Source: a virus (taxonomy: Duplodnaviria > Caudoviricetes). Taken from it: a stretch of 53,384 bases of DNA. The position numbers were made by a program, and so were the translations under genes. Where the stretch lies: the IMG/VR virus record IMGVR_UViG_3300030104_001707, positions 1-53,384 of that record; one strand, written 5' to 3'. A model generated the notes under the pieces. That model saw nothing but the letters and a program-made list of their open reading frames with translations, was not told the DNA's origin and did not search any database. Shown in pieces: positions 1 to 53,384 of the stretch (position 1 is the first letter of the stretch; each line of letters starts with the position of its first letter).

Positions 1-32
1 TTTTTTTGGCTCGGCAGATATGGGGTTTTGAT
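1..32. repeat. Terminal overlap identical to 53353-53384 (circular assembly junction)
   Basis: tttttttggctcggcagatatggggttttgat occurs at both ends; minus-strand gene orientation continues across the junction. Confidence 0.9.
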
Positions 33-96
33 AGGAACGCAGTGACATGATAGATGATAGGTCGCGTAGCGACACCATGATAGAAATTTTGATAGG
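30..96. repeat. TGATAG repeat cluster with GNA-triloop mini-hairpins (copy 1)
   Basis: Several TGATAG copies; GTCGC-GTA-GCGAC hairpin at 61-74 followed by ACCATGATAGA; related element at ~2335-2379. Confidence 0.6.
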
Positions 97-123
97 ATTT
101 ATCTAAAATTTTATCTATATTTT

Positions 124-162
124 AAATAAAAAATGGCTGAACCAAAAAATGATCCAGCCATT
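124..162 (-). terminator. Putative intrinsic terminator after ORF 168-374
   Basis: aatggctg/cagccatt inverted repeat followed by a T-rich tract on the minus strand. Confidence 0.6.
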
Positions 163-167
163 CTAAT

Positions 168-374
168 TTAACTAAGTTTTATTTTGTTTTCTATTGTCTG
201 ATGTTGTTTAACTATATCTTCAAAAGGTAGACTTTCACAAATTTTTACAAGGCGATTTATCTGGCTGTCCGATAAATCCAATAGCGGTAAATGGTCTTTA
301 TCATTTCCACTATCTTTAACAATTTGTGATAAACCAGAGCGAATGTTTTGTAATCTTTGTTTTGAAATGTCCAT
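168..374 (-). CDS. Hypothetical early protein (68 aa)
   Basis: ATG with upstream AAGGGAG; terminator downstream. Confidence 0.65.
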   Translation of the reverse strand: MDISKQRLQNIRSGLSQIVKDSGNDKDHLPLLDLSDSQINRLVKICESLPFEDIVKQHQTIENKIKLS

Positions 375-477
375 GGGACAAGCTCCCTTCTTAGAGCGTT
401 TGTGAATAAATACTTTTATATATAAAACGATTGAACTGCTAAAGTTATTGCATTTAATTTATTTTTTTTCACCTCCT

Positions 478-564
478 TTAGTCGCATAATTTGTTGAGAA
501 TATAAATAAACAATCCATAAATAAATAAAGCCAATGCAAGGAAAACAATTTTTTCAAGTAGCAT
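478..564 (-). CDS. Small single-TM peptide MLLEKIVFLALALFIYGLFIYILNKLCD (28 aa; not in ORF track)
   Basis: Translated by hand; GAAGGGA upstream of ATG; overlaps the stop of the upstream gene. Confidence 0.45.
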   Translation of the reverse strand: MLLEKIVFLALALFIYGLFIYILNKLCD

Positions 565-1285
565 GTGTTGTCCCTTCTATGTTCACAATAAATTTAGATA
601 TTGACGGATCAATAGCATTGCCTACGGATTTATATTTTAATCCTACTATTTTATTTTTATGAAGTAAATTATCAATGTCGGATGCATCACCATCAACAAC
701 TTGTTTCCCCATAAAATGAGATGGGATACCGCCATAAAATACAACTGACATCGGAACATCAGTTTTTAATGCTTTACGCACTGACTGTTGATATTTTGGC
801 GCATTGGAATAGGAAAACATCAGTTCATAGTTGTCTGGCGTTTTGCCTAGTCGTTTTGCTATTTTGGTATAATCATAAAAATTAATATTAGGAAAAGATT
901 GTGGAATTGATCCATTGGTTTTTAATTCCCATTGAATATCGGAAATAGTATTTAAACGAACGTATGCTTTAACATTTTGTTTTTTGCATAGTTTTTCAAA
1001 ATTATGTAATTCATTTTTCAATTGAATTATAAAGTTTTCTTTATCATTTAAATAGAAATCAGTTTTGTTAATTCTGGCCTTTTTAACTGATTTAAAAACT
1101 TTAGCCATACCAGAGCCATTTAAACAAGGTGCTTTGCATTCTGCTATATCTTGCATAGGGCAGATTGAGGTATTAGTTGGATTTAATGACATTGAAGCCA
1201 TACGGATCTTGATCTCTGTTTTATTGGTCGCGTTTTGTGTTTTCTTAATCTTTGTGTTGCTGTTACTTGTGTCTAAAAGTTTCAT
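554..1285 (-). CDS. Phage gp88-like protein with Cys triad
   Basis: Motifs CP..x..CxxxCL, VRLNTISDI, FYDYTK, DGDASD, VGLKYK typical of the gp88 family; ATG at 1285 preferred over the track start at 1324. Confidence 0.75.
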   Translation of the reverse strand: MKLLDTSNSNTKIKKTQNATNKTEIKIRMASMSLNPTNTSICPMQDIAECKAPCLNGSGMAKVFKSVKKARINKTDFYLNDKENFIIQLKNELHNFEKLCKKQNVKAYVRLNTISDIQWELKTNGSIPQSFPNINFYDYTKIAKRLGKTPDNYELMFSYSNAPKYQQSVRKALKTDVPMSVVFYGGIPSHFMGKQVVDGDASDIDNLLHKNKIVGLKYKSVGNAIDPSISKFIVNIEGTTHAT

Positions 1286-1357
1286 GGTTTTAATCCTATA
1301 AGTTAAAGAAAAGAATAGGGCCAAGTTTCTCAGGCTCGGCCCTTGTTAGAGTTTACA

Positions 1358-1816
1358 CTAGGAAGCTAATCTTATTTTGTGTCCCTTGTCTAAAACTTTG
1401 TTTCTCAATTCACGACTAAATATTTCAGTTTGTTTAAAGTTTAACGTCAAAACTTTTTTAATTTTGTTAGCTTGTCTTAATCTTGAACGAGTACGGTTAT
1501 ATTGCTTCATTTTCTCGACTGTAACTGAAGCCGTTTTTAACTGCTGTTTCATATCAAGATAATTGAAGAAATTACCATTTAAGAAATCAAACAATTTTAA
1601 AAAGATATTCCGTTTCAAATCGGCCCGTGCTAAATACCCAAAACCGTTATTTGTTACGAATGATCCACAACCCTCATTGGAATAATAGCTATTAATTATA
1701 CAGTCGTATTTACGAACATGGAATAAATACGCATGGTTCCAAAAAACTACTGCTTTGTTTTCCCAATTGTTTTTGTGATGCTGTTTAACGTTTGATCCGA
1801 AAATATAATTACACAT
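1358..1816 (-). CDS. Hypothetical early protein (152 aa)
   Basis: ATG with AGGAAAAGG upstream; co-oriented with neighbours. Confidence 0.65.
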   Translation of the reverse strand: MCNYIFGSNVKQHHKNNWENKAVVFWNHAYLFHVRKYDCIINSYYSNEGCGSFVTNNGFGYLARADLKRNIFLKLFDFLNGNFFNYLDMKQQLKTASVTVEKMKQYNRTRSRLRQANKIKKVLTLNFKQTEIFSRELRNKVLDKGHKIRLAS

Positions 1817-1876
1817 TTTATTTTTCCTTTTTCCTAGTGTTGGGCCAGAACGGAATTGCTCTGGCCCGATTAATAG

Positions 1877-2197
1877 TTATTCTGATATTGCCTTGATTTT
1901 GCTGATGATCTGTCTACTGCAACTCTTGATAACGCTATCAAGATTTAAATGTAACTTTCTATCGCCTATGCATAAACCCTCCTCTGTTGTCTGATTGATT
2001 AAAATATAGTTTCTGTTATTCCATGCAAAATGAGTTTCTTCACAATCCTTCCATTCTGGATTAGCGATTAATTCAAAATCCCCCTCCCCTAAATGAGCAA
2101 GAAGTGCGGTAATTTTTTTGGCGTAGTTGTCGGCATCCACTTTTGAATTAAATTTTGGAAACTCAATGGTAAAATCATTTTTGCTTGTGTGTGACAT
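1877..2197 (-). CDS. Hypothetical protein, first gene of the leftward arm (106 aa)
   Basis: ATG with AGGAAAGGTG upstream. Confidence 0.7.
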   Translation of the reverse strand: MSHTSKNDFTIEFPKFNSKVDADNYAKKITALLAHLGEGDFELIANPEWKDCEETHFAWNNRNYILINQTTEEGLCIGDRKLHLNLDSVIKSCSRQIISKIKAISE

Positions 2198-2309
2198 TTT
2201 TACAACACCTTTCCTAGTGGTTTCGTTCTCTTATTCTAACATATAAAAATCATAAAAAATAAAGGTTTAATTATAGAAATAATACACGCATCACATATAA
2301 GATACACTA

Positions 2310-2330
2310 TGCAAATGAGAACCCTTCGCA
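2310..2330. promoter_or_regulatory. Fur-family-like operator TGCAAATGAGAACCCTTCGCA
   Basis: Imperfect palindrome resembling the proteobacterial Fur box (AATGAGAATCATT core); mismatches in the right half. Confidence 0.3.
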
Positions 2331-2334
2331 AAAA

Positions 2335-2379
2335 TGATAGGATATATGATAGGTGCGCAGCACACCATGATAGATTTTG
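2335..2379. repeat. TGATAG repeat cluster with GNA-triloop mini-hairpin (copy 2)
   Basis: tgataggatatatgataggtgcgcagcacaccatgatagattttg; stem GTGC-GCA-GCAC. Confidence 0.6.
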
Positions 2380-2426
2380 TTCACGTTTTGTTCTCATTAT
2401 GTTCTCTATTAGAACGAAATAGGAAC
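2379..2426. promoter_or_regulatory. Cluster of alphaproteobacterial-type LexA (SOS) boxes
   Basis: GTTC-N7-GTTC-N7-GTTC (2379-2404) and GAAC-N7-GAAC (2412-2426), all with exact 7-nt spacers. Confidence 0.75.
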
Positions 2427-2459
2427 ATATGGGGTACACAAATTTATTTGAGAGGGGAT

Positions 2460-2477
2460 ATGCAAAATCCGTGCCAA
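2460..2477 (-). promoter_or_regulatory. Sigma54 (RpoN) -24/-12 promoter
   Basis: Minus strand TTGGCACGGATTTTGCAT = TGGCACG-N4-TTGCA, exact GG-N10-GC. Confidence 0.75.
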
Positions 2478-2520
2478 TATAATTGATGCCAACTAGTATC
2501 ATATGAGCGATACCTAGGTG

Positions 2521-2538
2521 ATGCAAGAATCATGCCAA
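2521..2538 (-). promoter_or_regulatory. Second sigma54 (RpoN) -24/-12 promoter
   Basis: Minus strand TTGGCATGATTCTTGCAT, exact GG-N10-GC. Confidence 0.72.
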
Positions 2539-2643
2539 GATTCCTCAACAATAATAGATTAATTTGAATGACATTTAGTTAAAATTGTATCTACTTGGGG
2601 TATGCGGTAGCCACGGCAGCGCTATACGTTATATATACATGAC

Positions 2644-2673
2644 CATATAAAATTCTAGAAAATAGGTTGTCAA
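2644..2673 (-). promoter_or_regulatory. Possible leftward sigma70 promoter
   Basis: TTGACA-N18-TATATG on the minus strand. Confidence 0.35.
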
Positions 2674-2754
2674 CCCCTTGATAATAAATAATAATATATT
2701 TAGTACGAAAATCGGGGATATGGGTAATATCTGTACTAATATATAAAAAATAAC

Positions 2755-2783
2755 TTGACAAACGACATAATATATGCTATAAT
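2755..2783 (+). promoter_or_regulatory. Consensus sigma70 promoter for the morphogenesis arm
   Basis: TTGACA-N17-TATAAT with TG extended -10. Confidence 0.8.
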
Positions 2784-2931
2784 CTATTTCTTAGTCGAGC
2801 ATCAGCGAGACTATATACAGAGTATAATAATATATACTGTTAATTAGTATGTAAACAGGTATAATATCCGTACTATTTAATATAATACCGTATATATGTA
2901 AATATTATTTGTAAATATATGTATTTTTTAC

Positions 2932-2961
2932 TTGACAAGTGTTATGTACTTATGTTATAAT
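2932..2961 (+). promoter_or_regulatory. Second sigma70 promoter for the morphogenesis arm
   Basis: TTGACA-N18-TATAAT with TG extended -10. Confidence 0.72.
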
Positions 2962-3103
2962 ACAATTCTCGTAAAAACTGCGTATATATGATCTTTATCT
3001 TGAGGGGTATGGGTTATTATACGGCCTTCTAGGGTCCAGTGATTGCATTATAAGGGGTTGTAGGTTAGCAGTTACCTCCCCCTTAATTTTTTGAGGTGTA
3101 ATT

Positions 3104-3382
3104 ATGGCAGAAAAGAACTCTTGGGATAGTTTAAGTAAAAAAGAAAAAGAAGAATTTGGTGATAAAGCTACCTATGAAGCATTTCTTAGAGCTTTAGGAA
3201 CAATGAAATCAGAAAGTGAAGAACAAAGAAGTATGGGTGTAACTCCTGTACCAAAACCTAAACTACCAAAACCTAAACCCAAGAAAAAAGGTATAAATAT
3301 AAAAGAAGGTGGACTTGTACTAAAAGTAACAAAGAAAGGTCCATTATATAAAGGTAAGAAAAGTGGCAACAAGAAGACGTAA
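3104..3382 (+). CDS. Small Lys/Pro-rich protein with IKEGG motif
   Basis: GAGGT RBS; PKPKLPKPKPKKK tract. Confidence 0.75.
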   Translation: MAEKNSWDSLSKKEKEEFGDKATYEAFLRALGTMKSESEEQRSMGVTPVPKPKLPKPKPKKKGINIKEGGLVLKVTKKGPLYKGKKSGNKKT

Positions 3383-3596
3383 TTACCGCAAAGAGTATGA
3401 CGAGTATCATGCCAAGCCAGAACAGAAGAAGCGCAGAGCATCTCGTAATACAGCAAATAAAAGACTAAAACCACCTAAAGGAAAAGAAGTACATCATAAG
3501 AATGGGAATCCTAGAGATAATAGGCGTAGCAATCTAGCTGTAATCTCCAAAACTAAGAATAGGCGAATACAGCCTAAGAGAAAACCTAGAAGATGA
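3363..3596 (+). CDS. Small HNH endonuclease, terminase-associated position
   Basis: EVHHKNGNPRDNRRSNLAVISKTKN HNH motif; upstream of the terminase genes. Confidence 0.8.
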   Translation: MATRRRNYRKEYDEYHAKPEQKKRRASRNTANKRLKPPKGKEVHHKNGNPRDNRRSNLAVISKTKNRRIQPKRKPRR

Positions 3597-3599
3597 GAA

Positions 3600-3755
3600 A
3601 TGGAAATAGTGGAATTAGCGTCAAGCACATGGCCCATAGCTTTGGGAGTCATTACTTTAATTATAGTATTAGCTAAAATGCACTCGGATATCGAGATTAT
3701 TAAGGAAAAGGTTCGTACCCTTTTCGATTTATGGAACTCTAAAAAGGATAAATAG
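3600..3755 (+). CDS. Small membrane protein MEIVELASSTWPIALGVITLIIVLAKMHSDIEIIKEKVRTLFDLWNSKKDK (51 aa; not in ORF track)
   Basis: Translated by hand; fills the gap between the HNH gene and 3758; one TM segment plus a short helix. Confidence 0.7.
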   Translation: MEIVELASSTWPIALGVITLIIVLAKMHSDIEIIKEKVRTLFDLWNSKKDK

Positions 3756-3757
3756 TT

Positions 3758-4570
3758 ATGGCATCTAATATACAAGCAGAAATAAATAAAAGAAATAAAG
3801 GAATTTCAGACAAACTTTGGAGTTGGTTTAGTACATATATTGATAAAGTGTCTTCAGGGGGTGCAACGCGAAGAGGTAAGCCAATTTCAACCACAAAAGC
3901 TAAAGAGTTAGTAAAGAAAAGTGTAGAGAAAACAGGCTCATTAACTGATGCAAAGAAAGATCTTAAAGCAACAATAGATCCTGTTATAGAAGATTTTAAT
4001 GCGTCTGTAAAAGGAGCTAAAGCTACGGTAGCTGATAAAAAAGCTGGTAAAGAAAAATTTGTTGGCAAAATGAAAAAATCTGTTAAAGATGCAAGAAAAA
4101 AATCAGCGGAAAAAGGAATAGAAGATCTTAATAAAACTGTAACAGGAGCTAAATCTGCTGTAGCAAAAAGAAAAGATGTTGCAAAACTTGATGATGATGC
4201 AATAAAAGCAAAAAGAAGAGCAGATGCGAGAAAAGCATCAAAAAGTCAACCTGACGGTCCTAGTTCTGCACCTAAAGCATCAAAGAAAAAAGAAGGTAAA
4301 TCTGTAAAAGAGTCTTTAAAAGATCAAATTTTTAAACAGGATGTACGCAAATACGGCCCACTTACTGTAGATTCTACAGATAGAGGTATGAGTAAATTTA
4401 TGGGTACTGATGAAGAAATAGCTGAACAAGAGATGGAAGAAGAAATGAACCTCCGCAAGGGCGGTACTGCCAGAAGAAAAGCCTTTGGCAAGGGTGGTAT
4501 GTATAAAGCACCAAAGAAAACATACGGTATGAGAAAAGGCGGTTTTACTCGCAGAGGTGCATCTAGGTGA
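3758..4570 (+). CDS. Lys-rich basic protein with three C-terminal xxKGG motifs
   Basis: 270 aa ORF; LRKGG, FGKGG, MRKGG near the C-terminus. Confidence 0.8.
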   Translation: MASNIQAEINKRNKGISDKLWSWFSTYIDKVSSGGATRRGKPISTTKAKELVKKSVEKTGSLTDAKKDLKATIDPVIEDFNASVKGAKATVADKKAGKEKFVGKMKKSVKDARKKSAEKGIEDLNKTVTGAKSAVAKRKDVAKLDDDAIKAKRRADARKASKSQPDGPSSAPKASKKKEGKSVKESLKDQIFKQDVRKYGPLTVDSTDRGMSKFMGTDEEIAEQEMEEEMNLRKGGTARRKAFGKGGMYKAPKKTYGMRKGGFTRRGASR

Positions 4571-4950
4571 AATTATCTTTAACTGAAAAAGAAAGCAAGT
4601 TCCTAGACGCTTTATTTGGCGATGCTAACGGACACTTTCGTACTGCAATGGACATAGCAGGGTATTCTAAAAGCGAGTATCCTGCAAGAATAATTAAACG
4701 GCTTAAGGAGGAAATTGTAGAAAGAGCAGAATATGTTCTGGCTGCAAATGCTCCAAAGGCCGTTATGTCTATGGTAGATATAATAGATGATCCCAGTGCA
4801 TTAGGAAACAGAGAGAAACTGGCAGCATCTAAAGAAGTGCTGGACAGAGTAGGGCTGGTCCGTACTGAAAAGATAGAACACAAAGGCACTCCGTCTGCCG
4901 TAGTGGTTCTACCGCCTCTTAACAAAGACGAAGATGAAGACGAGGAATAA
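4567..4950 (+). CDS. Putative terminase small subunit
   Basis: LTEKESKFLDALFG..A...AGYS HTH-like N-terminus, LDRVGLVRTEK, VVVLPP; directly upstream of TerL. Confidence 0.7.
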   Translation: MKLSLTEKESKFLDALFGDANGHFRTAMDIAGYSKSEYPARIIKRLKEEIVERAEYVLAANAPKAVMSMVDIIDDPSALGNREKLAASKEVLDRVGLVRTEKIEHKGTPSAVVVLPPLNKDEDEDEE

Positions 4951-6748
4951 AACCAAACCGATACCAGCAGTAGGCACATTGCCGTATGGGTATGACAAGG
5001 CTGAAAGAGGACAGGATAAATCATGTTATTATCCTGATAAATTTGTACTCACTAAATTAGACGAAGCAATAGTACAAATAAGAGATGGCAGACAGCCAGT
5101 AAGAAAGGTTGCAGGATGGCTAGAGAATGAAACCGATCGTAGGCTATCCGCAACGAGACTTCATAAACTTGCGTGGACTAAAGAGGAGCTTGAGTCGCGT
5201 AGAGAAGAGCGAGAAGCCAACCTCACCAAACAGCAAAAACAGGTCAGTAGGCTCAAAAATACTGTTAAGCAGACAACAATCAAAGCTGAACAGGCAAAGC
5301 GAAGACTCAAGAAAGCACTTAATAAACCTGATCGTGTAGAGAAAGAGAATATAGAGTTTCCTGTAGAAGAGACAGAAGTAAAACAGGAAATTGCTTTTAA
5401 GCCGAATCCAGGTCCACAGACAGAGTTTCTATCTGCTGGAGAACGAGAAGTATTTTATGGTGGAGCAAGAGGTGGAGGTAAAACCTATAGTCTCTTAATT
5501 GCACCATTAAGGTTTGCACATAAGCCTACACACAGAGCATTATTATTGCGTAGGTCAATGCCAGAACTTAGGGATGTTATCTTTCAGACACAACAGATAT
5601 ACCCAAAGGCATTTAAAGGTGCAAAGTTTAAGACACAGGAAAACACTTGGCACTTTCCAAGTGGAGCTAGAATAGAGTTTGGATATGCAGAGAATTTACA
5701 AGATGCCCTCAGATATCAAGGTCAATCCTATACATGGATCGGTGTGGACGAGCTTCCGCAATATCCTAACGCAGATATATGGCATTTTCTACGGTCATCG
5801 TTAAGAACTGTAGATACAAGCATACCTCTTCAGATGAGGGCAACAGGAAACCCAGGAAACGTAGGATCGGCTTGGGTTAAGAAGATGTTTATAGATCCTG
5901 CACCGCAAGGCAAAAGATTTGTAGAAGAAGTCCGTTTTACTGCGAACGGTGAAGAAATAATATCTGGTATTAGCCGTAAGTTTATAGCAGCGTCAGTATG
6001 GGATAATCCGTACTTGACACAAGACCATAGTTATGTATCAATGTTGGGGTCACTTCCTGAAGCAAAACGCCAACAGTTTTTATATGGGAATTGGGATGTT
6101 GTCGAGGATGGAGCGTTTCCAGAATTTGATAAAGAAGTTCACGTTGTCGAATCTTTTAAGATTCCTTCAGGATGGACAAAAGTCAGATCTTGCGATTTTG
6201 GCTATTCTAGTCATTCTGCTGTGCTTTGGGGAGCTATTGATTATGATGATGTACTATGGATTTATAGGGAGTTATATGTTAATCAACTGACAGCAGACAA
6301 ATTAGCATGGGCTATACTGGATGCAGAAGAAGATGACGGTAAGATATATGATGCAGTACTAGACTCCTCATGTTGGGCAAAGCGAGGAGATGTAGGTCCA
6401 TCCATAGCAGAGACACTAAACAGAGAAGGATGCAGGTTCAGACCTTCTGACAGATCTCCAGGATCTAGGGTTGCTGGTAAAATAGAAATGCATAAAAGAC
6501 TGCAAATAGATGAAGAAACAGAAGAACCAAAATTAATAATACTAAGTAACTGCCGTAACTTAATTAGTCAGTTACCTGCATTACCTTTAGATAAACGAAA
6601 TCCAGAAGACGTAGATACAAAGTCTGAGGATCACTTGTACGATGCATTAAGATATATGGTAATGTCAAGACCAATGAATAAATTTTCAGCATGGGAACAT
6701 ATTCCAAAACAACGCTGGAAACCTTCAGATAATATGTTTGGATATTAA
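4934..6748 (+). CDS. terL: Terminase large subunit with an N-terminal ~150 aa extra domain
   Basis: Walker A YGGARGGGKT, Walker B IGVDE, ATGNPG coupling motif, nuclease DFGY and EDHLYDALRY. Confidence 0.95.
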   Translation: MKTRNKTKPIPAVGTLPYGYDKAERGQDKSCYYPDKFVLTKLDEAIVQIRDGRQPVRKVAGWLENETDRRLSATRLHKLAWTKEELESRREEREANLTKQQKQVSRLKNTVKQTTIKAEQAKRRLKKALNKPDRVEKENIEFPVEETEVKQEIAFKPNPGPQTEFLSAGEREVFYGGARGGGKTYSLLIAPLRFAHKPTHRALLLRRSMPELRDVIFQTQQIYPKAFKGAKFKTQENTWHFPSGARIEFGYAENLQDALRYQGQSYTWIGVDELPQYPNADIWHFLRSSLRTVDTSIPLQMRATGNPGNVGSAWVKKMFIDPAPQGKRFVEEVRFTANGEEIISGISRKFIAASVWDNPYLTQDHSYVSMLGSLPEAKRQQFLYGNWDVVEDGAFPEFDKEVHVVESFKIPSGWTKVRSCDFGYSSHSAVLWGAIDYDDVLWIYRELYVNQLTADKLAWAILDAEEDDGKIYDAVLDSSCWAKRGDVGPSIAETLNREGCRFRPSDRSPGSRVAGKIEMHKRLQIDEETEEPKLIILSNCRNLISQLPALPLDKRNPEDVDTKSEDHLYDALRYMVMSRPMNKFSAWEHIPKQRWKPSDNMFGY

Positions 6749-52550: not shown

Positions 52551-52775
52551 TTATACTAAGATGTCCAAGTTAGTACCACGATTAGTATCTACTGGTGGTG
52601 GTGGTCTAGTAGGTACTAGGTTGTCTACCTTTTTAGCAGATGGGTAGTGATGTTCTTCCACATGTTTAATGTGTGGTGTAGACTTCCAAGGTACATAGAT
52701 GTCTCTACCTATAAAGTCCTGCACCAGTATGTGATATACACTGTCAATGCTCATTAATAACTCCTTTATATCCAA
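52551..52775 (-). CDS. Hypothetical protein (74 aa; start uncertain)
   Basis: Fills the gap between two genes; C-terminal RGTNLDILV. Confidence 0.55.
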   Translation of the reverse strand: MDIKELLMSIDSVYHILVQDFIGRDIYVPWKSTPHIKHVEEHHYPSAKKVDNLVPTRPPPPVDTNRGTNLDILV

Positions 52776-53254
52776 TCTGGTTGTGGTCTATTTGTCCAAT
52801 TAAGTATGTGTGCCTTATCTGATTTGTAGTATGCACGATAAGCATCTACATAGTCAAGTCTTTTATGCTCATCAGGCATACATTGTGGTGGTGTAGTATG
52901 TAGTCTGTAGTCCTCATCAAAGTCATCATAGAACATAAAGTCTGCAATGTTCTTGAGTATGGCAGTAGACTTGTGATTTTTACCATATCTGTATTTATAC
53001 TCAGCACCTATATGAAGACCGTGTAGTAATGCCCATGACATATTAGCATCATTCTCTCTGACCCATACAGTCATAGGATGGTTCTTGTACGCTGGTTTAT
53101 AAATACGATTAGTAATATCCTCATCAGGAAAACACCATTCATGTATGGCGGTACTACACATTTGAGCAGTCTCCAACACCATTTTAACAACGTGTTTATC
53201 ACACAGTTGTTCGGCAGATTTGAACGGACAACGATCAATAAAGAATATGTTCAT
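52766..53254 (-). CDS. Pyrimidine-dimer DNA glycosylase (DenV-like) family protein
   Basis: MNIF...DKHVVKMVLETAQM, NHPMTVW, EYKYRYGKNHKS, PQCMPD, AYRAYY. Confidence 0.75.
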   Translation of the reverse strand: MNIFFIDRCPFKSAEQLCDKHVVKMVLETAQMCSTAIHEWCFPDEDITNRIYKPAYKNHPMTVWVRENDANMSWALLHGLHIGAEYKYRYGKNHKSTAILKNIADFMFYDDFDEDYRLHTTPPQCMPDEHKRLDYVDAYRAYYKSDKAHILNWTNRPQPDWI

Positions 53255-53329: not shown

Positions 53330-53371
53330 ATTTTTTTTGGCTCGGCAGATATTTTTTTTGGCTCGGCAGAT
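53330..53371. repeat. 21-bp tandem duplication attttttttggctcggcagat x2
   Basis: Exact copies at 53330-53350 and 53351-53371. Confidence 0.8.
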
Positions 53372-53384
53372 ATGGGGTTTTGAT

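Follow-up and report, generated by a model that had tools for sequence, protein, structure and literature searches.

Bacterial promoters read by RNA polymerase carrying sigma-54 (RpoN), such as glnAp2 and pspA, have a GG and a GC element 10 nt apart, in a consensus of the form TGGCAC-N5-TTGCW. Host LexA controls phage genes in several known cases, among them tum of coliphage 186, rstA of CTXphi and, with gp7, the phage GIL01; the phages in question are temperate or live in a carrier state, and their operators number one or two. Phased operator arrays are also known to be bound by small phage or plasmid proteins, as with P2 Cox, 186 Apl and the heptads of the omega repressor, and the morons of lambdoid phages are units of promoter, gene and terminator inserted between conserved genes. 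In Alphaproteobacteria, the LexA site is a direct repeat of the form GTTC-N7-GTTC, according to PMC9578287, PMC3323433 and a 2025 bioRxiv preprint. Here we describe a 53,384-bp stretch of DNA (the window), which is the complete IMG/VR virus record of an HMO-2011-type marine podophage, and in which two sigma-54-type boxes and a six-site mirror array of LexA-type half-sites lie together where the minus-strand early arm begins, within a cassette that is missing from a near-identical relative. The motif cluster is far beyond chance expectation.

The window, whose end repeats derive from circular assembly, has a GC content of ~37% and, in its terminase and portal genes, shows 66-71% DNA identity to HMO-2011-type podophages of SAR116, Roseobacter and SAR11. 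The rightward arm, from 3104 to ~38.3 kb, carries the TerS-like, TerL, portal and structural genes. The leftward arm runs from 2197 through position 1 and then from 53254 down to 38393; its genes include those for GP88, a Pyr_excise-like protein, a Mom-like protein, DUF932 and a large replication-type open reading frame (ORF) that matches the DNA polymerase A of another contig, L055. On this layout, the motif cluster falls within the divergent control region (2198-3103), where the leftward early/replication arm begins. The ORFs overlapping 2236-2526 have low-complexity, hydrophobic translations and look non-coding.

Two boxes of the sigma-54 -24/-12 type lie on the minus strand of this region. 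The first, P1 (2460-2477, TTGGCACGGATTTTGCAT), fits the full consensus, and the second, P2 (2521-2538, TTGGCATGATTCTTGCAT), is an exact TGGCAY-N5-TTGCW; the predicted starts would be at ~2449 and ~2510, respectively. A sequence-only reading of this DNA had proposed both elements, with correct sequences and coordinates, and they are the only exact matches to the pattern in the 53 kb (2476-2461 and 2537-2522, minus strand). Shuffled sequences gave a mean of 0.24 exact matches, and 1 of 100 shuffles reached two. When one mismatch was allowed, the window had 8 matches where shuffles had 3.76 on average, and at least as many were seen in 6 of 100 shuffles; this count is not unusual, and therefore the exact pair alone stands out. 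P1 and P2 are alike at the consensus positions only, their spacers and flanks being different. They are intergenic, lie 61 nt apart on the same strand and, as the sequence-only reading had it, point at the minus-strand (early/replication) arm, with the start codon of its first gene, P0002, 250-310 nt downstream. Compared with bacterial RpoN promoters, the boxes are thus alike in their GG/GC spacing, in the complete fit of P1 to the extended consensus and in being intergenic and aimed at a gene; they differ in being tandem, in being missing from the nearest relative and in belonging to a phage in which neither an activator gene nor an upstream activator site was recognised.

Tandem pairs of sigma-54 boxes 35-60 nt apart are common in viral contigs, with at least 120 stretches carrying them. 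We pooled 550 sites from 120 viral loci with tandem pairs and examined the positions left free by the search: T preceded TGGCA in 63%, G followed TGGCAY in 69% and A or T followed TTGC in 90%. These free positions reproduce the sigma-54 consensus, which argues that the motif class is a genuine sigma-54 site. Many of the viral clusters are mirrored or more tightly packed (26-29-nt spacing), and some are found at the end of a contig, so their purpose may not be simple promotion. As a separate observation, six viral contigs of ~11 kb (L062, L071, L079, L157, L163 and L174) have tandem sigma-54 boxes less than 200 nt from one end. In four of them (L071, L079, L157 and L174) boxes are present at both ends and face inward, which suggests inverted terminal repeats with sigma-54 sites.

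The mirror array lies downstream of the boxes, at 2379-2437, and consists of six sites in a strict 11-bp phase: TGTTC three times, GAAC(G/A) twice and GTAC, the tetramers being GTTC at 2379, 2390 and 2401, GAAC at 2412 and 2423, and GTAC at 2434-2437. One possible reading is as three alphaproteobacterial LexA-type boxes (2379-2393, 2390-2404 and 2412-2426). The GTTC-N7-GTTC-N7-GTTC at 2379-2404 and the GAAC-N7-GAAC at 2412-2426 that had been singled out earlier are confirmed, and they match the alphaproteobacterial LexA direct repeat including its fifth base. GTTC-N7-GTTC occurs five times in the window, three of these in the array, against a shuffle mean of 1.08, and 1 of 100 shuffles reached five.

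Scanning viral contigs for the five-site pattern returned 11 stretches, and the same pattern written backwards, used as a control, returned none. Nine of the 11 resemble the window, with TTGTTC/GAACAA units arranged as 3+3 or 3+2+GTAC and often an adjoining run of G; the other two, L052 and L056, look like coding or tandem-repeat chance matches. A stricter 2+2 pattern added L198, L199, L200 and L201, and the window-like architecture is found in L047-L051, L053-L055, L057 and L198-L201. The array is known in this way from ~8 other marine podophage lineages. In 596 Gb of genome contigs the five-site pattern had 5 matches; four look different, and the fifth, in a cyanobacterial stretch (L183), has a flavour similar to that of the array. 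The mirror array is essentially absent from bacterial genomes, and it appears not to have been described before. In the near-complete genomes G403, G404 and G405, in L200 and in the window, it lies at or beside the point where the arms diverge.

The phages that carry the array range from 34 to 51% GC and share with the window the portal, a 92-aa protein of PHROG 7595 that is probably structural and, in some, the Pyr_excise-like protein, and nothing else. Three of the carriers, L198, L200 and L201, are HMO-2011-type relatives (46-48% identity in TerS and, for L200, 49% in TerL and 59% in the portal), and they have GGATAG repeats and a GGGGTACTACG...TATATACA element beside the array. A 15-mer, GAACAAAACGTGAAC, is common to the window, L053/L055 and L199. 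Neither the motif region nor the L053 control region had a BLAST match among isolated phages.

A second instance of the array combined with sigma-54 boxes exists in a distant relative, represented by L053 and L055. There, the array is followed by a GCAACAGTGTGACAA-type repeat block and then by two exact sigma-54 boxes 38 nt apart, a pair analogous to that of the window, which aim at the first early gene (120-160 nt ahead in L053). The early arm of L053/L055 parallels that of the window, with a small basic protein, GP88, a Pyr_excise-like protein, a primase-helicase, Thy1, PolA, SSB and RNR, and its PolA is closest to that of HMO-2011-type pelagiphages, at ~40% identity.

Both elements of the window belong to a variable 731-bp segment (1842-2572), in place of which the closest relative has ~346 bp. 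This relative is the contig behind the loci L005, L186 and L311 (here L005), and it was the sole return when relatives were sought via a 270-aa late-arm protein. Its proteins are nearly those of the window (TerS 99.2% identical, TerL 98%, portal 98%, a 152-aa neighbour 95% and GP88 93.6%), and the DNA corresponding to 2573-3115 is 95% identical. The replacement segment of L005 retains a module of CTATCAT repeats but lacks the array, P0002 and any sigma-54 box; at the position aligned with P1 it reads TTGACAC...CTAGT, with the GG and the TTGC lost. No array was found in the 12.1 kb around the L005 arm junction. The cassette of the window is not an assembly artefact, because an independently assembled TARA scaffold (L190), 99.98% identical to window positions 1731-6197, contains it.

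Conservation was also looked for among five complete HMO-2011-type genomes (HMO-2011, CRP-1, HTVC033P, HTVC104P and one spring-water genome). These have two isolated matches to the sigma-54 pattern, against one for the control, and no pair; GTTC-N7-GTTC-N7-GWWC was not found in them, and TGTTC-N6-TGTTC had 3 matches against 3 for the control. Conservation across such genomes, which the sequence-only reading had proposed as a check, was accordingly seen in 0/5, for the sigma-54 pair and for the GTTC triple alike. In 42 loci bearing GP88, neither an exact sigma-54 box nor an in-phase chain of at least four tetramers was found, and one or two isolated GTTC-N7-GTTC boxes occur in 5. The cluster is a dispensable, swappable cassette and not a conserved switchboard for the early genes, as had been proposed: a relative whose flanking proteins are 93-99% identical has neither the boxes nor the array, nor the gene next to them.

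The cargo of the cassette is P0002, an orphan gene of 106 aa (1877-2197, minus strand). Directly after its stop codon, at the 3' edge of the cassette, lies a strong stem-loop without a U tract (1843-1870, minus strand), with a folding energy of -20.6 kcal/mol and a z-score of -6.8; none of 200 shuffles was equally stable. P0002 is a real small gene: six homologs in marine metagenomes, at 63-88% identity, keep a MSHTSKN start. A scan of viral sequences found no homolog, and a metagenome scan found the identical TARA scaffold only. The protein had no Pfam or PHROG match, its AlphaFold model (pLDDT 66, pTM 0.54) had no Foldseek match in the PDB at E <= 0.001, and its best Atlas score was 0.86, with no useful neighbour. 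We considered P0002 as a binder of the array and rejected it, as it has no homolog near other arrays, is neutral to acidic by inspection of its sequence and has no assigned fold or family.

A gene equipped with promoter-like and operator-like sites and with a hairpin, the whole unit being missing from a near-identical genome, would have the anatomy of a moron. The cassette is present in one and absent from the other of two near-identical genomes with conserved flanks, and it carries promoter-like boxes of its own and a trailing strong hairpin. The likeness to lambdoid morons extends to the small size and orphan status of the gene; in contrast to them, the promoters would be of the sigma-54 type, the hairpin has no U tract and the insertion sits where the early arm begins. 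In the late arm, too, the first gene (3104-3382, plus strand) is variable, L005 matching 20 of its residues at 65% and having a different ORF of 131 aa, and therefore both arm heads carry swappable small genes.

Our favoured explanation, which we hold tentatively and rate a little below an even chance, is that the cluster is part of an accessory, moron-like cassette that recruits the sigma-54 RNA polymerase and the alphaproteobacterial LexA of the host. Reading along the minus strand, the order is two sigma-54 boxes, the mirror array, the CTATCAT-hairpin module, a leader of ~135 nt, P0002 and the strong hairpin, and the cluster would be the regulatory head of the cassette. The boxes would bind host sigma-54 RNA polymerase as closed complexes, which would need a host enhancer-binding ATPase to fire, and the array would be bound by host LexA at its GTTC-N7-GTTC direct repeats. 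P0002 and, by read-through, the early operon would in that case come under a control that reflects host physiology and is lifted by the SOS response, which phage infection can itself bring on. The identity of the binding proteins, and transcription starting at the boxes, we infer from sequence.

Several results are consistent with LexA as the binder. Among 30 lexA loci from 91 sampled genomes of one phylum, GAAC-N7-GAAC lies upstream of lexA in 10, in the form GGAACAC-N4-5-RGAACA, CTGT-N8-ACAG is present in 11, and 9 have neither motif; in one of 10 further lexA-like loci (G037, whose genome is small and AT-rich), GTTCTCTATTTGTTC lies 64 nt upstream of the lexA-like gene. The half-site of the array, TGTTC/GAACA, is the half-site of these lexA-upstream boxes, fifth base and spacing included, and in tetramer and spacing it equally resembles the alphaproteobacterial operator as known in Caulobacter. 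No LexA DNA-binding domain is encoded in five array-bearing records or in the window, and a conserved host factor is therefore the simpler binder of the array. The relatives are phages of Alphaproteobacteria, and related isolates infect SAR116, Roseobacter and SAR11. As to SAR11, PMC12753301 describes a complete SOS set (lexA, recA and umuDC) that rises during pelagiphage infection.

A number of observations weigh against this explanation. By a position weight matrix (PWM) that we built from 11 real lexA-promoter boxes, mostly of GC-rich genomes, the window boxes score 10.0-12.4, against 17-27 for the training sites and a mean shuffle maximum of 14.4; clustering alone is significant, with 4 of the top 11 window matches falling in the array region. 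The mirror order of six sites differs from known SOS operators, which have one or two boxes, and mirror arrays in general reach from 6 to more than 10 half-sites, with ten or more in L050, L053 and L199. The place of the array relative to the promoter is not fixed: it lies at +12 to +70 downstream of P1 in the window and 100-300 nt upstream of the boxes in L053, a distance like that of an enhancer. Sigma-54 boxes accompany the array in 2 of ~8 array lineages only, and in the others no exact box was found near the array or in the near-complete genomes; conversely, at 120 sigma-54 loci GTTC-N7-GTTC occurs 0 times in the 119 kb within 300 nt of a box and 30 times in the other 958 kb. The link between the two elements is lineage-specific and not general. 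The phage has no PF00158 activator domain and no recognisable upstream enhancer site, and conservation of the sigma-54 promoters was not seen among relatives, P1 being lost in L005 and no pair being present in the five complete genomes. On rpoN itself, the family PF04552 turned up in 356 of 401 genomes sampled from one phylum (a tally that includes one unpublished genome, G358), and a LD12 SAR11 genome has no annotated rpoN according to PMC12113158; for the host of the window phage, rpoN and a LexA of the alphaproteobacterial type are presumed. Finally, the CTATCAT modules, or a sigma-70-like site at 2855-2827, may be the real early promoters, in which case the sigma-54 boxes and the array would be add-ons for P0002.

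The same evidence bears on other explanations. The array could be a bidirectional operator of another protein, a phage regulator or a different host factor, that controls both arms from the point of their divergence, the sigma-54 boxes being an independent addition. We regard this as possible, if somewhat doubtful. The 3+3 symmetry and the strict phase would suit such a protein, as would the extra, irregularly spaced GAACA repeats of L050, L053 and L199, the position at the arm divergence in G403, G404, G405, L200 and the window, and the modest LexA scores; L051/L057 and L053/L055 moreover share a small basic protein adjoining the array. The phased arrays of P2 Cox, 186 Apl and the omega repressor are alike in having short sites one helical turn apart, direct and inverted, between divergent promoters. 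Unlike in those systems, no small DNA-binding protein common to the array-bearing phages was found: the small basic protein is without a homolog in the window, P0002 has none near other arrays, and no phage protein encoded near the array is common to all lineages. The half-site and spacing are, besides, exactly those of alphaproteobacterial LexA boxes, and L005 manages without the array. Alternatively, the sigma-54 boxes may be non-productive, parking or titrating host sigma-54 holoenzyme as decoys, roadblocks or handles on the DNA, which may also hold for the dense sigma-54 site arrays of many phages. The many viral arrays with 26-29-nt spacing, or with mirror pairs, are too dense for independent promoters, and the missing activator gene and enhancer would also be in keeping with it. 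We judge it unlikely, as the window has just two sites, 61 nt apart and both facing the gene, which is the normal geometry of tandem promoters, and the two boxes of L053 face its first early gene in the same way.

A further explanation of the array, and one that we consider very improbable, is that it serves at the arm junction as an origin of replication or is recognised there for packaging (pac/cos). Bidirectional origins typically have mirror arrays of iterons; a TerS of PHROG 2538, the PHROG that the TerS-like protein of the window matches, is encoded with the array 150-200 bp upstream of it in six loci, and in 6 of 11 pattern loci the array is less than 600 nt from a contig end. However, these ends have no fixed position relative to the array, and an essential origin would not be missing from the sequenced part of a near-identical relative such as L005, whose TerS is 99.2% and whose TerL is 98% identical to that of the window; a packaging site as the principal explanation was rejected on the same TerS identity. 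The sequence-only reading had gone further and suggested that all early transcription may be governed by an AND gate that combines a sigma-54 activator signal, relief by SOS and perhaps iron, which would permit a dormant state without repressor or integrase. The motif pair and boxes are real and aimed at the early arm, and six-frame searches of the window for integrase and repressor families (PF00589, PF00239, PF00717, PF01381, PF01726 and, for the activator, PF00158) were empty, finding no tyrosine or serine recombinase, S24 peptidase, HTH_3, LexA DNA-binding or sigma-54 activator domain, as that reading had stated for repressor and integrase. The iron input, on the other hand, is not supported, as the Fur-like palindrome at 2310-2330 does not rise above chance: an E. 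coli-type Fur consensus is matched within 2295-2350 at 12/19 positions at best, a score equalled or bettered at 153 window positions, and the 21-mer is self-complementary at 12/21, with 1438 of 53364 window 21-mers at least as palindromic. The cluster is missing from the nearest relative and from the five complete members of the group, conserved CTATCAT modules precede downstream early operons too and could serve them independently, and the array is downstream of the boxes here and upstream in L053, with no activator site or gene found. Dormancy has little to commend it either, as HMO-2011-type subgroups IV-X normally have no integrase and are taken by the authors of PMC9038755 as probably obligately lytic. 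We hold the AND gate to be highly improbable. Least credible of all is that the motifs arose by chance and serve no function. Short repeats are frequent in intergenic DNA of high AT content, and enrichment over background, a check that the sequence-only reading had proposed, was not seen for the Fur-like box or, by PWM, for single LexA boxes; it was seen for the clustering of LexA boxes and for the exact sigma-54 pair, two adjacent boxes where 0.24 are expected per genome, and the array pattern with its empty control and the recurrence of array and boxes together in L053/L055 also speak against chance.

HMO-2011-type and related podophages are among the most abundant marine viruses, and how they initiate transcription appears not to have been described in print: a literature search, covering listings and selected passages, found no paper on promoters, sigma-54 sites or LexA sites in HMO-2011-type phages. 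If host LexA and sigma-54 polymerase do bind, these phages would read the stress and nutrient state of the host via swappable regulatory cassettes, which would be relevant to the course of infections among SAR11, SAR116 and Roseobacter. The window phage would then resemble 186 (tum), CTXphi (rstA) and GIL01 in using the SOS repressor of the host instead of, or beside, a repressor of its own, and would differ from them in being a probably lytic podophage, in the mirror array and in the added sigma-54 boxes. A broader proposal, which we consider speculative and rather unlikely to hold in full, is that mirror arrays of LexA half-sites at the arm junction constitute an undescribed, SOS-sensing bidirectional operator shared by lytic podophages of the dominant Alphaproteobacteria of the ocean; in the window phage and in L053/L055 it would be wired to tandem sigma-54 promoters, such that expression of an accessory early gene would require both the cleavage of host LexA and an active enhancer-binding protein of the host. 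Whatever its binder, the array recurs at the arm junction of several lineages, and therefore offers a concrete, testable element for finding the factor, host or phage, that separates early from late expression.

Other candidate promoters surround the cluster. In the CTATCAT module beside the array (2334-2373, minus strand), direct repeats of CTATCAT flank a short GC palindrome; this module is lineage-conserved and kept in L005, and a second module (47-83, minus strand) follows a terminator at 164-130, ahead of the next early operon. The core, GTCGC-N3-4-GCGAC, has a 5-bp stem and a 3-4-nt loop; in the copy beside the array it is altered yet still palindromic. Such modules, two in the window, one in the L005 contig and three in the L006 contig, come after terminators and before early genes, and the positions recorded outside the window are L321 287-360 and 1318-1347 and L311 7248-7277; a scan for the pattern gave mostly random matches, the L005 and L006 contigs alone being relevant. 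From its sequence, the module looks like a promoter or operator. Its short hairpin recalls the hairpin promoters of virion RNA polymerases, for example that of N4. No candidate for a virion RNA polymerase was found in the phage, a 1229-aa ORF having no sequence match in PHROG or the PDB. The sigma-70-like site mentioned above (TTTACA-17-TATTAT, minus strand) lies in the conserved segment. On the plus strand, two perfect sigma-70 consensus promoters head the late arm (2755-2783 and 2932-2961), with TTGACA, a 17-18-nt spacer and a TATAAT with a TG extension, in the segment that is 95% identical in L005. A lambda-like terminated leader before 3104 on the plus strand was considered and rejected, its fold being no better than that of shuffles (z-score -0.84). 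Rfam gave no match above the gathering score over 1-3300, and no tRNA gene was found in the window phage.

Some minor features of these regions were also recorded. A GC-rich element of the form GGGG(TA)..CG...TATATACA is kept at 2598-2645 of the window, at ~5070-5120 of L005 and in L198, L200 and L201. Repeat blocks of the GCAACAGTGTGACAA/GCAACAgTGTTGC type lie beside the array in L053 (640-890) and L051 (2500-2655), and the lineages with these blocks share the small basic protein (~70 aa, MAKFKK...). The Pyr_excise-like protein (PHROG 624, with a DNA-binding annotation; 52766-53254, minus strand) has counterparts at 40-44% identity in L048, L053, L055, G403 and G404, and is encoded as well by L005, which has no array. 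At the assembly junction (53334-53384 plus 1-32), a tandem duplication of ~22 nt (TTTTTTTTGGCTCGGCAGATAT) lies beside the second CTATCAT module.

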